Position numbers and translations under genes: made by a program. DNA of 64,000 bases from Eledone cirrhosa. Taxonomy: Eukaryota. Location: NCBI GenBank assembly GCA_964016885.1, contig OZ024760.1, forward strand, positions 34,472,001 through 34,536,000, read 5' to 3'. The notes beneath the pieces are model-generated. The model did not search any database. It saw only the letters and a program-made list of their open reading frames with translations, and had not been told where the DNA came from. This document shows positions 2,871 to 11,343 of the stretch, piece by piece. How positions within the stretch are numbered: position 1 is the stretch's first letter; each line of letters starts with the position of its first letter.

Positions 2871-3638
2871 GTATATATATGTATATATATATATGTATAT
2901 ATATATGTATATATATGTATATATATATATATGTATATATATATATGTATATATATGTATATATATGTATATATATGTATATATATATATATGTATATAT
3001 ATATGTATATATATGGATATATATATATATATGTATATATATGTATATATATATATTATATATTATATATAATATAGTATATATGATATATATATATGTA
3101 TATATATGATATATATATTAATATATTATATGTATATATATATATATATATTATATATATATATATATATTATATATATAAGTATATATAGTATATATAA
3201 TATATATATATATGTATATATATATAATATATATATATATATATGTAATATATAGATATATATATATATATATATGTATATTAATATATATATATATAGA
3301 TATATATATATGTATATATGTATATATATATATATATCGTATTCATATGTATATATATATATATGTATATATGTATATATGTATATATATATATATGTAT
3401 ATATGTATATATATATATATTATATATATTATATGTATATATTATATATATATATATGTATATGTATATATGTATATATATTATATGATATATATATATT
3501 ATGATATATTATATATATATATATAAGTTTATATATATGTATATATATATATATATGTATATATATGTATATATATATATATGTATATAATGTATATGTA
3601 TATATATGTATATATGTATATATATATATATATGTATA

Positions 3639-3717
<79 letters not shown>

Positions 3718-3770: not shown

Positions 3771-3783
3771 TTTATTAAAATAA

Positions 3784-3857
3784 CAGATTAAAGTTTAAGC
3801 AAAGAATCGCTGCTTTCACCCTTAACGGGATCTTCTGAAACTAACAAAGTCAATCTG
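3784..3857 (-). ncRNA. Type I hammerhead-like motif with CAGAAGA core in the PLE 3' pLTR
   Basis: Minus strand: CAGATTGA..AGTTT-CAGAAGA-TCCC gttaa GGGT-GAAA-GCAG cgattct TTGC-TT-AAACT-TTAATCTG. All three stems plus a distal stem I extension can be drawn. Confidence 0.6.
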
Positions 3858-3932
3858 TAAACGCAGAAGTGGATATTTCAAAAAACGTCGCAACCAGAGG
3901 AAGACAGGAAGACGATACTTTGGTTCGTGGGA

Positions 3933-4200
3933 ACGTTCCCTGGCAAAGAAGGGGAAAAAACGAATATAATACGTCATTAATAGGAGCGGTGAAAAACAAT
4001 TACGCGCAAAGACAGAACCACGTTTATGGTATAAAAGAGGTCGTAGACTAATGTTCTCTTAGGTGGTTCATAGAGACGTTCTCTGGCAATGAACGAAAAA
4101 AACGAAGATAATACGTCATATGTGGTCCGTGGAGAACAATTGCACGCAAAGACAAAAACACGTAAATGGTATAGCAGAAATCGTAGACTAAAATTCTAAC
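3933..4200. repeat. Two diverged ~145-bp tandem units in the PLE 3' UTR
   Basis: acgtt..ctggcaa..aaaaaacgaa..ataatacgtcat..aacaatt..cgcaaagaca..tcgtagactaa occurs twice. Confidence 0.75.
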
Positions 4201-6004
4201 TAGGAGACCGAATGAATCTCCGCTTCAGAGTTAACAACAAAGTAAATAAATACAATACAGAGGTAATAGAAATTAAATAAATACATACAGGCAAACAAAT
4301 ACGTACATACACAAGCATACGCGAAAACACTTACCATAGGTATACAAATAAATAAATAATTAAATAAACGTATATAAATAAATATGTAAATAACAAGCGC
4401 ACACACATACCTACATGTAAATACACAAATGTTCGGAGACGTAAGTCAACCAAAAAATGAAGTACACATATACACACACCCTACATACGTACGAACCTGC
4501 ATACTCACACAGACGCAAAACTCCCGTATACACATAACCAAACCATATGTACCAGAATATGTAAAATTATACGCCAAAACATATACAATCAAATATACGT
4601 ACGAGAAGGTATACGTACCTTCACAAAACATACAGGTAATATATACTTACCTATGCAAATAAGTAATGGTATAAACAAAACATATACTTAGCTACCACAT
4701 CCAGACGTAAAATATCCACGTATAGATCGTACTATCCGATAGGGTATAGCGTGGGGCTGTAATACAGGAAAGTTTTGTGCAATTTATGTTTACAAGCCGA
4801 AATTGCCTCAGATTTTTTGTTTAAGATGTGGTCTGTGGCGTAGAGTATTTCCAAGGCCTCAGCGGTGCAGAGGTCACATGGTCTTTTATTTCCGTTATAC
4901 GAACTAGCCCTAGCTAGGATCTCCCAGTGTAACTTATTTTGGGTGTGGTCGTCTTTTAGACTCCAGATATAAGCTGAAAGTGACGTCATATTCCTTCTTA
5001 GAGGGTAACGAAAAGAATGGGTATGCATGTAAAGACGCTGCTTGAATCTATTGGCGGTTAACCCTATGTAGGCCCTACGGGACGTGGGTGTTTCAACCTT
5101 ACATTTGTAGACAATGTTACTAGAGAGGCATTTCCCGGATAGGGGGCAATCAACCCGATTCCTACAATTACAGTTAGTACTAACTACAGGGTTGCACGTG
5201 TTTCTGCAGCTAGGTAGTTTAGCTAAATTTGAAGCTGTGATGTTATGTGCAAGGTTAGGAGTTGTAGAGTAAGAAATTTTAATAGTATTTCTATTAAAAA
5301 TTTTACTATATTTATGTGTAGGGGGAAAATGCTTCGTAATAAGGGAACGAAAGATCTTAGCTAATGGTGTGGCCACCTCCATATTATATGGTGGGTTATA
5401 CCAACAAATGCGACGGGATCTATTTCTTCTAGTTCTATTTTCGTACTCTGTATATGCTACCTTATCGACAAATCCACTCCGAGCAAGAGCTTCATTGTAA
5501 TAAGTGGAATGGTCGTTGAAAATATGCTCGTTAGTAGATAGACGGGAAAGCCTCAACGAAACGTTTCTTACCAGGTTCTTGGTTATGCTGGCAGGATGGT
5601 TGGAATGTTTACTTATGTAATTAAGCATAATACAACCCATTCAGTAAATTGAGGGTAACGTCGAGGTAATTAACGACCGAGAGGTTGAAGCCTTTAAAGA
5701 AGGCTGTGAGTTCTTTTCTGAACCTGTCGAAAGCACGAGGTCCGCACTTAGTCATGGTCAAAAGACCATCATCACGGTACAAACCACCGCCCGCGTTGGG
5801 GTATTCGTCCTTAGCGATTCTTTGCTTAAACTTTAATCTGTTATTTTAATAAATATTTGCTCTACGGTTCTTATATATTTGATATATATTTATCCTTATC
5901 GAGCCCTCTTTGGATTTTAGTCTTAAAATTTATTATTATTACTATATATATATATATATATATAATAATATATAAGATCGAAATATGGTTAAAAGAGTCC
6001 CATG

Positions 6005-6075
6005 TATTTTATTATGCGCATTTCAAAAACAAATATCATCATGCAATAACATTTGCGTTTTCGTCAGATAAAATA
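6005..6075 (-). ncRNA. Type I hammerhead ribozyme (left arm of palindrome)
   Basis: Exact reverse complement of 6209-6279. Confidence 0.8.
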
Positions 6076-6208
6076 GGGAGACATGATATGAAGGTTAAAA
6101 CACACTTGTGAATAGTGCAGTTTTAAAGCAACATATTTTAAATCAACATATGTTGATTTAAAACTGCACTATTCACAAGTGTGTTTTAACCTTCATATCA
6201 TGTCTCCC

Positions 6209-6279
6209 TATTTTATCTGACGAAAACGCAAATGTTATTGCATGATGATATTTGTTTTTGAAATGCGCATAATAAAATA
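6209..6279 (+). ncRNA. Type I hammerhead ribozyme (right arm of palindrome)
   Basis: TATTTTAT-CTGACGA-[~16-bp stem II, GCAT loop]-GAAA-TGCGCA-TA-ATAAAATA: canonical core, 8-bp stem I, palindromic stem III. Predicted cleavage is after A6271. Confidence 0.82.
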
Positions 6280-6405
6280 CATGGAACTCTTTTAACCATC
6301 TTTTGATCTTATATATTATTATTTATACTGCAGTCCTACAAACTGTAGAGTGCTACTTATCTGATATCTGCATTGCTTTATTGTACTACAATAAAACTCA
6401 CCTCC

Positions 6406-6407
<2 letters not shown>

Positions 6408-6473
<66 letters not shown>

Positions 6474-6476
6474 TAC
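6408..6476. repeat. (TA)n microsatellite
   Basis: Direct reading. Confidence 0.95.
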
Positions 6477-9400
6477 TCCAATCCGGACTGCCTGGCGCTA
6501 TAAAAGACAGATTCTATGAGACACTGATGCTCACTACCTCCCAAATAACCGACAGTGACTATATAATTATTGCTGGCGACCTAAATGGTCATATGGACAA
6601 CATTATGACGGAATCCACGGAGGCTATGGGTTTGGTACTAGAAACGAGGAAGGCTCCAGAATCCTGGAATTCTGTGATGCAAATAACCTAACTATCTGTA
6701 ACACTAACTTTAAAAGACGAGACAATCACCTGATCACCTACAGATCAGGGGAACATACCAGCTAGGTAGATTATATCCTTACCAGAAGACGTGACAGTGT
6801 CTGTTGTAAACACTAAATCCCTCCCCCATGAAGAATTCACCTCCCAACATAGACTGATAATTAGCGACCTCATAGTCAGGACGAGACGTACTAGACAGCA
6901 GAAGAGGACTATCCTCAGGAGAAAAATATGGAAGCTAAAGGATCCCACAGCCAGAAATAAATTTAAAAGCATATTACTTGATGCTTTCGACAGTAAGGAA
7001 GAGCAATTAGAGTCGTACAATATAGAGGAACAGTGGGAATTCCTGAAAGCAAACCTGCTGATGGCGGCAGACGAAGTCTGTGGCTGGAGCAGGCCTGTAG
7101 GCAGGAGGAGAGTAACATGGTGGTGGAACAGTGAGGTGGAGGGGTCAATCAAGGTCAAAAACCAGGCTTGGAAAGCATGGCGGGATGGGGGAAGTAGAGA
7201 AGACTATCAAGTGGCCAGGAGGGAAGCTAGGAGACAAGTGTACGTCGCAAGAAGGGAAGCAGAGGAAAGAAAGTTCAAGCATGTTCTACAACGCGAGGAC
7301 CAAAAACGTGAGGTGTTCAGGATTGCTAGGCAATGTGTCAAGGAAAACCGTGATATTGTCGGGGAGAAGTGTGTACTTAATGATGATGGCGAGTATGCCA
7401 TCACTGACGCTGATAAGAAGGTAGCTTGGAAGTGTCACTACGAAAGGCTACTAAATGAGGAGAATAAATGGGAGATAGACAGTCTCCCCCACATCGACCC
7501 AATAGAGGGACCAGCAGTGTTAGTCCAGGGTAGTATAATAAGTAAGGCAATCAAAGATATGAAGACGGGTAAGGCGGCTGGGGCTTCGGAAATAGTTGCT
7601 GAGATGCTGAAAGCCTCTGGAACGGTGGGACACACCATGGTCACCCGGATAGTAAACCAAGTCATACAGAATGGGGTTGTTCCGAAGGACTGGCGTAGCA
7701 GCATCATCGTTAACTGTTACAAGGGTAAAGGAGACGCCCTAGATAGGAGTAACTATAGAGGCATTAAATTAATCGACCAGGTCATGAAGGTCACGGAAAA
7801 AGTAATAGCACAACTAATCAGAGAGAGAATTGATCTAGATGAAATGCAGTTCGGGTTTGTGTCAGGCAAAAGTACCACAGACACTCTTTTCATTGTACGA
7901 CAACTACAGGAGAAGTACCTAGCTAAAAGTAAACCCCTATACTTAGCTTCCGTCGACTTGGAGAAAGCCTTCGACAGAGTCCCCTGTTACATTATCTGGT
8001 GGGCTCTTAGAAAACTAGGTGTTGATGAATGGCTTGTGAGAGCTATACAAGCCATGTATAAAGAAACAGTCAGCAAGGTCAGAATTAACAACGAATATAG
8101 TGAAGAGTTTAGCGTAAAAGTTGGCGTTCATCAGGGCTCCGTCCTTATCCCCCTACTATTTATTATTGCCTTTCAGGCTATAACAGTGGAGTTCAAGACC
8201 GGCTGCCCATGGGAACTCCTATACGCAGATGATCTAACGCTCATAGCTGAATTAATGGCCGAGCTAGAGAAGAAATTCCAAACATGGAAGCACGGCCTAG
8301 AATCAAAAGGCCTTAAAATTAACCTGGCTAAGACTAAAGTTCTAGTTTGTAGGAAAGAAAATAAGGCGCCGGTCCCTTCCGGGAAATAGCCATGCTCAGT
8401 GTGTAGGAAAGGCGTAGGTAGAAACTCCGTTTTATGTCCCAAATGCAAAGTATGGGTGCATAAAAGATGTAGTGGGATCACAGGTAAGCTAACTAAGAAC
8501 ATAGATTTTACATGTGGCCGGTGCTCTGGTGCAATAAGTAGCAGCAAGTGCCCCAAAAATACTAGCTCTTTCAATTACGCAGAGGGTTCTATAGAAATAG
8601 TGGACAGCTTCCGTTACCTGGGTGACAAGATCAGCAATGGGGGAGGGTGCTCTGAAAGTACAGTAGCTAGAGTCAGAACTGGATGGAAAAAGTTCAGAGA
8701 GCTTATACCACTATTAGCTGCTAAAGGGTTTCTCCCTAAAAATGAAAGGCAGGCTGTATGATGCCTGCATACGAACAGCAATGTTGCATGGCAGTGAGAC
8801 CTGGGCATTGTGCGCAGAGGATATACGCAGGCTAGAAAGGAACGAAGCTTGCATGCTCCGCTGGATGTATAATAGTAATATACGCGAACGGCAAAGCATA
8901 AACGAACTAAGGGAAAAATTAGAAATAAGAGGGATCAGATGTTGTTTACTCGAGAGAAGGCTACGTTGGTATGGTCACGTGATGCGCATGAAAGACGACA
9001 GCTGTATAAAAAGTGCAGGGCAATAAAGGTAGACGGTAGCCACGGAGGAGGCAGACCCAGAAAAACCTGGGACGACCTGATAAATTCCGACCTCACACGC
9101 TTATACCTCTTCAAGACAATGTCACTGGACCAAGATCTTTGGCGGTACTCAGTAATAGAGAAGACCCGCCTTACCTAAGTACAAAGTGAAACCTACTACA
9201 GTCAGTAGGCACCTCTAACAAAAATACACCCCCGTCCCACCACCCCCACCCCATCGACACCACTCCTTTCAATGTAAAGTTATGTTGGTGCCACAACATC
9301 CAGGCCGAAACAAATGAGATCGTGTAGGTGTCACGACAAAAAAACACACAGTCCACGCTGTAATGTGGCCGTGTAGGCAACACGGTAAAAACCTCCCGGC

Positions 9401-9562
9401 CCCACACTGTAAATGTGGTTGGTGTTAGGAAGGGCATCCAGCTGTAGAAAACCCGCCAGACAGTCCTATGCCAGCAAGACAACTTGCTTCAAGTGGGAAA
9501 ACTCCCGTCCAAACCCATGCAAGCGTGGAACATGGACGTTAAACGATGATGATGATGATGAT
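6477..9562 (+). mobile_element. RTE-clade non-LTR retrotransposon, copy A (5'-truncated within the AP endonuclease; frameshifts and a TAG stop)
   Basis: Starts at QSGLPGAIKDRFYE. ORF 6791-8389 has NYRGIKL, QFGF, VDLEKAFDRVP, GVHQGSVL, LLYADDL. The C-terminus has RLRWYGHVMRM..GRPRKTW, and the element ends in a (GAT)n tail at 9544-9562. Confidence 0.95.
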
Positions 9563-11136: not shown

Positions 11137-11307
11137 ATAATAGAAAATCAAAAGATGGTTAAAAGAGTTCCATGTATTTTATTATGCGCATTTCAAAAAC
11201 AAATATCATCATGAGATGACATTAGCGTTTTCGTCATATAAAATAGGGAGACATGATATGAAGGTTAAAAAACACTTGTGAATAGTGCAGTTTTAAATCA
11301 ACATATG
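11137..11307 (-). mobile_element. Solo copy of the palindrome arm with degenerate hammerhead (11175-11245, core ATGACGA)
   Basis: Closely matches the left arm of the 5962-6322 palindrome, ends at the palindrome centre, and is flanked by microsatellite. Confidence 0.88.
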
Positions 11308-11343
11308 AAAAGTGATATATATATATGTGTTTATATATATATC

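Follow-up and report, generated by a model that had tools for sequence, protein, structure and literature searches.

The palindrome in a 64,000-nt window of the Eledone cirrhosa genome (the window being the whole stretch of DNA analyzed; assembly GCA_964016885.1, contig OZ024760.1, positions 34,472,001 to 34,536,000) is a two-armed, ORF-less insertion of two pseudo-LTR (pLTR) copies from an autonomous Hydra-type Penelope-like element (PLE). The parent element is a new family within a known clade and leaves a known footprint. With moderate confidence, we propose that the palindrome was formed by priming of both strands of a (TA)n target on the capped leader of the PLE RNA.

A repeat search of the window returned the arms (5957-6139 and 6145-6327) as a 183-nt inverted repeat that is 97% complementary, with six mismatches between the arms, which confirms that the palindrome reported by the first-pass annotation is real. 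The limits given there, 5962..6322, miss the tail up to 6408 (Table 1). The two sides of the insertion are unequal: past the palindrome, the right arm has another 85 nt, up to 6408, where (TA)n follows, and the outer boundary of the left arm is blurred by TA homology (about 5957-5968). In a full PLE copy, 83 nt separate the tail from the ATG that follows. Instead of a plain loop, the centre has a duplication that spans 6121-6151, and the last ATAT of the duplicated stretch is common to the start of the right arm as a 4-nt overlap. A third, solo arm copy (95%) with a short end A lies at 11140-11315 (-), where C3 of the ribozyme core is changed to A. The right TA run is abutted by the 5' side of a decayed LINE (6476-9560, +) with AP endonuclease and RT frames that ends in (GAT)n and that, from its motifs, we take to be RTE-like.

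TABLE 1 Features of the palindromic insertion and its hammerhead motifs (window coordinates; ref, position on the element reference)
Feature	Position	Strand	Detail
(TA)n target, left side	5943..5961	.	
Left arm, inverted PLE pseudo-LTR copy, fixed inner end to short end A	5962..6136	-	ref 3627..3451
Junction, 15-nt duplication of the left arm's end	6137..6151	.	
Fixed inner end, A of ATATG	6148..6148	+	likely capped transcription start
Right arm, 261 nt, pseudo-LTR from fixed inner end to tail end B	6148..6408	+	ref 3450..3709
Tail on one side only, from end A to end B, about 85 nt	6324..6408	+	
(TA)n target, right side	6409..6475	.	
Type I hammerhead motif	6209..6279	+	predicted cut after A6271
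Type I hammerhead motif, mirror copy	6005..6075	-	predicted cut after 6013
Stem I of + motif	6209-6216/6272-6279	+	TATTTTAT/ATAAAATA
Core of + motif	6217-6223 and 6260-6263	+	CUGACGA and GAAA
Stem II of + motif	6224-6259	+	16 bp, one mismatch
Stem III of + motif, palindromic	6263-6270	+	AUGCGCAU; AUA cleavage triplet

When both strands of the window were searched with a strict type I hammerhead pattern, four matches were obtained. A full 8/8 stem I was present only at + 6209 and - 6075; the other two matches, at 6/8, fall in satellite sequence. The window contains a 34-kb satellite (29862-64000; period 14/29, TAAAGATACTATAG) that shows a strong AT skew and takes up over half of its length. Every part of the complete type I hammerhead that the first-pass annotation had assigned to each arm was found at its place. 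The label canonical suits the core and fails for the closing pair of stem II, which is A-U instead of G-C, and the CATG/CATG extension described beyond the motif is present here and has one pair broken in 9 of 25 relatives. The 3-bp stem III with its 2-nt loop is self-complementary, with a predicted duplex energy of -10.5 kcal/mol. An Rfam scan gave no hammerhead family match and nine weak miRNA-type matches on the hairpin. Monomer folds of the motif were not better than shuffles (z-scores of -1.0 to -1.6) and left stem III unformed, and co-folding of two monomers did not yield the dimeric active fold.

Over 25 chosen relatives, 96.3% of the stem cells are paired, against 34-54% for slid controls, and in these relatives the pairing is kept mostly through G-U/A-U changes. 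Conservation of the core, which had been proposed as a check, was found: in 24 arms from 15 loci (12 from the protein search described below and 3 around earlier ribozyme matches), the core and stem III carry 3 changes in 408 letters, compared to 56 in 1,715 in the flanks (P = 0.004, an optimistic value since the arm copies are related). For stem covariation, the companion check, no significant signal was obtained. A single pair of 30 is altered on both sides as a true compensatory change and 11 are altered on one side, and no measure exceeds shuffles. Judged by these sequences, the motif is conserved as expected of a ribozyme, which points to selection on it within the parent family.

In the 3.0-Gb genome, the arm is repeated in high copy number, with 613 exact 63-nt copies (control, 0) and 22,540 genome-wide matches to a relaxed ribozyme motif (control, 5), far more than chance would give. 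In long copies, a 3' UTR and an endonuclease ORF lie upstream of the arm in the same orientation. A protein search scored 134 ORF copies of 90-100% identity, from which 12 with long frames were fetched. One locus (L035) holds a whole element, consisting of an upstream pLTR, a 798-aa RT/GIY-YIG ORF, a 3' pLTR, and (TA)n, with a unit of 3,709 bp that includes a 1.2-kb 3' UTR. The suggested search for an autonomous PLE partner thus succeeded, and the proposed Penelope link stands, the arm being the terminal repeat of a 3.7-kb PLE. The idea of a minimal nonautonomous element of ~170 nt is wrong or unsupported: the arm forms one terminus of an autonomous PLE, the longer arm measures 261 nt, and short and long copies do not differ in their variants. 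At 15 polymorphic sites, 63 short and 29 long arms carry the same variants, none of them diagnostic, so that this small sample gives no sign of a separate short family.

By motif reading, the parent has a single ORF that encodes an RT plus, at its C terminus, a GIY-YIG endonuclease; a Pfam scan of this ORF returned no significant match. DKT replaces DKG (SDKTNN), as in Hydra-1_Obim, the CxCX5C linker reads CNCPVKNKC, and a YRDD motif is present. There is no CCHH, and the stretch CNLC..E..N..CLH, read by eye, corresponds to CxxC plus CxH around a conserved E and N. The N-terminal RWK position reads RWI; RWK occurs in five of nine aligned homologues, and variants occur in four. An extra Asn/Ser-rich stretch of about 70-80 aa (residues about 575-655 of ORF P0001; L035:3850-4250, -) precedes the CxCX5C linker and is absent from the nine aligned homologues. 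N-rich inserts have been described in rotifer Penelope ORFs. The 343-nt leader (L035:5965-6307, -) contains nine upstream ATGs, given which translation of the ORF may need splicing, ribozyme cleavage, or reinitiation. Elsewhere, four ORF matches of equal score lie about 27-28 kb apart (G000:C4:352200055-352283640), a segmental or tandem duplication carrying the element.

DKT, YRDD, CxCX5C, CxxC/CxH, and the lack of CCHH are described as traits of Hydra-clade PLEs (PMC8557442), and these motifs, compared by eye with the alignment blocks in that source, assign the parent to the Hydra clade. With the families described there, including Penelope-13_HM and Hydra-1_Obim, it shares the C-terminal GIY-YIG, DKT, CxCX5C, and CxxC/CxH, as well as a type I hammerhead near the 3' end and (TA)n targets; the parent has its hammerhead in the pLTR and is inserted in (TA)n. 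For Penelope-13_HM, the listing gives a 5'-truncated copy in inverted orientation, and hammerheads are noted on both strands (PMC8557442). The unit found here is larger (3.7 kb with a 1.2-kb 3' UTR, versus 1.1-3.0 kb in the listed Hydra families), stem II is longer (16 bp versus 3-7 bp in the listed motifs), and so is the tail (about 85 nt versus the 30-40 nt quoted for the clade) (PMC8557442). The ribozyme sequence is unlike that given for Hydra-1_Obim (PMC8557442), and the parent therefore belongs to a different family. Naiad was rejected as the parent group on account of the C-terminal endonuclease. The ORF of the left neighbor was rejected as well, as it belongs to a different family with its own ends: at 3776-5940 (-) lies a second Hydra-like PLE family with a 5'-truncated RT/GIY-YIG ORF containing stops and, by eye, a degenerate hammerhead-like motif near 3810-3845.

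The outer ends of the insertions were mapped in two samples, both of which required an intact ribozyme and cover the first parts of two contigs. The first 100 of the 613 exact matches fall in 84 loci, of which 80 made up the first sample; the second, more diverged, comprised 40 loci from the first 100 of the 22,540 relaxed matches, namely, 17 close pairs and 23 diverged variants or wider pairs. In these first 100 relaxed matches, 17 head-to-head pairs were seen by eye 72-146 nt apart, the next spacing being 980 nt. The 80 loci of the first sample hold 84 insertions, 67 of them without ORF sequence. Among its 54 two-ended insertions, 52 combine A with B, none are AA or BB, and 2 have a damaged end; for directly adjacent arms, the figure is 46 of 48. 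In the second sample, 24 of 27 two-ended insertions are A+B and 3 are A+A (L141, L142, and L159), so that across both samples a short end is combined with a tail end in 76 of 81. All of the A+A palindromes belong to the more diverged subfamily, which may break the A/B rule. Short-end/tail-end pairing is also seen in the neighboring 3776-5940 family, whose inverted end piece (5815-5940) is about 90 nt longer than its direct end near 3780. These head-to-head pLTR copies confirm the inverted-pLTR insertion suggested in the first-pass annotation. By eye, maps of the 120 loci (1.4-8 kb long) showed no head-to-tail array of the short unit, on which ground a retrozyme was rejected.

The two arms of a pair also share a history. 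In 40 arm pairs, the window's own included, 10 nonmajority variants are common to both arms, compared to 1.3 expected (0 of 5,000 permutations). Since private variants are shared, the arms of one insertion come from one source; the 139 variants that are not shared within pairs are mostly later changes or RT errors. Palindrome arms match each other better than they match sister loci, and each palindrome was therefore made anew. In the first sample, eight pairs have both arms stopping at the inner end, eight have both passing it, and two are mixed, of which one is probably misclassed (P = 0.0007). That the arms stop or pass together fits copying of the same RNA region. In 5' reach, arm A extends further in 35 of 52 pairs, arm B does so in 9, and 8 are tied, in a comparison in which very short A arms are underdetected; arm A exceeds arm B by 40 nt or more in 26 of the 52. 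Centres and arm lengths vary from locus to locus, and the ends are asymmetric. One complex insertion (L108) consists of a whole inverted unit (ref 3709 to 1) and two partial copies, all three with the same private one-base deletion near the inner end.

The inner end, in contrast to these varying centres, recurs at one base. Of 143 arms, 51 stop at ref 3446-3456, at the A of ATATG, and 10 further arms align to ref 3430-3445, mostly as overshoot. Solo copies abutting (TA)n end at the same A, and contigs from sequencing runs (one study, possibly the source sample) contain many different joints that end at 6147-6150. Three of the 143 arms stop near the ribozyme cut site, in a sample biased to intact ribozymes, and ribozyme-cut RNA was rejected as the template on this count. 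Natively, ATATG is preceded by C. Once junctions of the native, partner-overlap, and TA-target kinds were set aside, an extra G was found at 15 of 28 and 7 of 15 junctions. Genome-wide, the base before the inner end is G in 2,198 arms, T in 1,649 (including TA targets and AT overlaps), and A in 617, with nonnative C left uncounted; 5,079 arms have the native upstream context. G before the inner end together with native upstream sequence occurs in 3 cases, and G one base later was counted 90 times. The partner's native C could explain G at 235 of the 2,198 junctions, and slippage that duplicated the first 8 nt may account for some others (L055 and L070). Many junctions are centred on CATATG.

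The excess of nonnative G (2,198 versus 3 with native sequence) fits copying of an mRNA cap. The inner end reads TCA+1TAT and lies 343 nt before the ATG in L035. This resembles the consensus of an initiator-like (Inr) element. An extra G at the 5' junctions of full-length L1 insertions has been ascribed to the cap (PMC11702581), and the Penelope transcript is described as starting within the pLTR (PMC2377424). From the DNA junctions, we infer that the inner end is likely the capped start of the element's RNA. A cap or start-site account of PLE stubs was not found in the literature searched, in which coverage of subscription papers is limited, and one may be in print.

We propose the following scheme for the insertion. 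Transcription of the element would begin at the A of ATATG (343 nt ahead of the ATG), which would place sites A and B in the RNA twice, in the leader and at the 3' end. The element's enzyme would prime both strands of the cut (TA)n target on the capped 5' leader, with internal starts of reverse transcription, one strand being primed at A and its partner at B. Copying would pass through the uncut ribozyme and run off at the cap, often adding a base that pairs with G. From sites A and B of the leader, cDNAs of about 175 and 261 nt would result, whose ends of like polarity would be joined via the self-complementary ATAT or a short filler; priming at the 3' copy of A/B would give the long insertions. 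At the present locus, the join would consist of a 15-nt re-copy of the left arm's end and the 4-nt ATAT overlap.

Several observations weigh against priming on the leader. The transcription start and the cap are read from DNA junctions only, this locus has no extra G (its junction is of the ATAT overlap type), and 3 of the 27 second-sample pairs are A+A. Some G junctions may reflect slippage or, in 235 of 2,198 cases, the partner; the 139 unshared variants within pairs also count against it. In addition, site A is TA-rich, and target annealing or endonuclease action could account for it instead of an RT start. Whether thousands of palindromes record integration in vivo, with two fixed complementary internal sites, an uncut capped leader, and both cDNAs running off at the cap, is in our judgment evenly poised.

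The leader of a full mRNA and a short capped RNA both fit the data, and the latter is the basis of an unlikely alternative, in which the short stubs spread by themselves: a 261-nt arm with an internal promoter would give a short capped RNA that includes both A and B and is copied in trans into new palindromes, in the manner of a SINE. This would be the first-pass annotation's idea applied to a larger unit. Between the inner end and B, the arm has the start, the ribozyme, and both ends, most insertions in the first sample lack ORF sequence (67 of 84), and all of the cap and pairing evidence fits as well. Moreover, the Penelope promoter is described within the pLTR (PMC2377424), and pLTRs are described as acting in trans (PMC3846280). 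However, no variant is diagnostic between the 63 short and 29 long arms at the 15 sites, and arms that stop at the inner end (G, A, or T before it; at least 4,464) are similar in number to native-upstream arms (5,079), which is what a single mRNA with A/B present twice should produce.

It is improbable that the inner end is instead a snap-back or truncation hot spot, at which cDNA would stall at CATATG and fold back, with end A arising from TA homology or endonuclease resolution and no cap involved. The shared variants of the arms, the many junctions centred on CATATG, and the TA-rich site A agree with such a course, as does the published view that the tail stems from endonuclease resolution (PMC8557442). 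Nevertheless, arm A reaches past arm B in 35 of 52 pairs and so was not copied from B, by which simple snap-back is largely rejected. The tail of arm B is missing from A, solo copies next to (TA)n end at the same base, and G is the commonest nonnative base even though the native base is C.

A foldback ribozyme element or MITE built for the purpose, mobile as a palindrome and acting as a dsRNA or siRNA source, is in our view very improbable. Its read-through RNA is predicted to form a 183-bp hairpin, and PLE copies are described as yielding antisense small RNAs in a rotifer (PMC3846280), but the varying centres and arm lengths, the asymmetric ends, and the closer match of a locus's own arms than of sister loci argue that each palindrome arose anew. 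The symmetric TIRs and constant mobile body of a MITE or foldback DNA transposon were not found, the ends differing by the tail and the centres varying, and this candidate was rejected. The probability of an assembly foldback artefact is negligible: no read-derived contig of three sequencing runs spans the whole locus, but the six mismatches between the arms, the unequal ends, the 15-nt filler, the differing junctions of dozens of loci, and foldback joints at the same base in sequencing-run contigs (one study, possibly the source sample) all speak against it.

Inverted PLE copies with a one-sided tail and opposite-strand hammerhead pairs have already been published. Inverted-pLTR arrangements of EN+ PLEs (PMC8557442; Adineta Pen2a, PMC3846280; Drosophila virilis Penelope, PMC2377424) combine an inverted 5'-truncated copy with a direct copy and have a tail at one end, as here. 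They differ in that both copies are here cut to the leader and stop at a fixed base with an extra G; in the literature searched, no published account of leader-length double copies with a fixed base and extra G was found. PLE remnants of Schistosoma (Cervera and de la Peña, 2014; PMC4209133) likewise show opposite-strand hammerhead pairs 100-700 bp apart, in truncated PLEs, with a palindromic helix III expected to act as a dimer and a long helix II. Their motifs are described as minimal and lacking helix III, whereas in those examined here helix III has 3 bp and the closing pair is A-U. Metazoan non-LTR retrozymes (PMC7229834; bioRxiv 10.64898/2026.07.22.740005) are likewise short, ORF-less, and pLTR-derived, with a type I hammerhead, yet they are described as head-to-tail units with circular RNAs, and the stub is head-to-head with ends off the cut site.

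The closest mechanistic parallel is provided by Poseidon of Anolis (PAc; PMC11167929), a PLE whose protein is reported to cut and extend both target strands in vitro, to start at two internal sites bounding the tail, and to prefer uncut RNA, features shared with the arrangement proposed above. The PAc sites lie inside the ORF and show no strand preference in vitro, whereas the sites described here precede the ATG, and A is near-strictly combined with B. L1 twin priming (PMC11702581) similarly involves a second priming event from the other target strand, which leads to an inversion, and an extra G at full-length 5' ends. In L1, however, the second primer is placed at variable internal positions and the arms barely overlap, compared to the same stretch and two fixed sites here.

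As for the RNA of the stub, each strand carries one of the two ribozymes and no transcript has both in sense, so that they cannot form the cis dimer that the palindromic stem III needs. This type of helix III is said to require a dimer (PMC4209133), and for stem III the stub ribozymes would, by prediction, depend on a partner. The predicted fold of read-through RNA is the 183-bp hairpin (-283 kcal/mol over 452 nt), which would bury the ribozyme and would be a plausible source of dsRNA or small RNA. Most likely, the stub is a dead by-product in which the ribozymes are passengers.

There is nothing unusual about the palindrome itself, a known PLE footprint of which the genome has thousands, and such stubs are a trap for MITE or retrozyme annotation. 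The origin of the inverted pLTR and one-sided tail of PLEs is named as open in PMC8557442. On this point, the A/B pairing, the single-base inner end with its G, and the few cut-site ends provide in vivo support for two-sided internal priming on RNA that is uncut and capped, and extend the in vitro PAc result to another clade. If this account is true, the junctions would map a transcription start to one base from DNA alone, and the inverted-pLTR-plus-tail shape would be explained. The 261-nt arm would then be left holding all that is needed for renewed transcription and copying.
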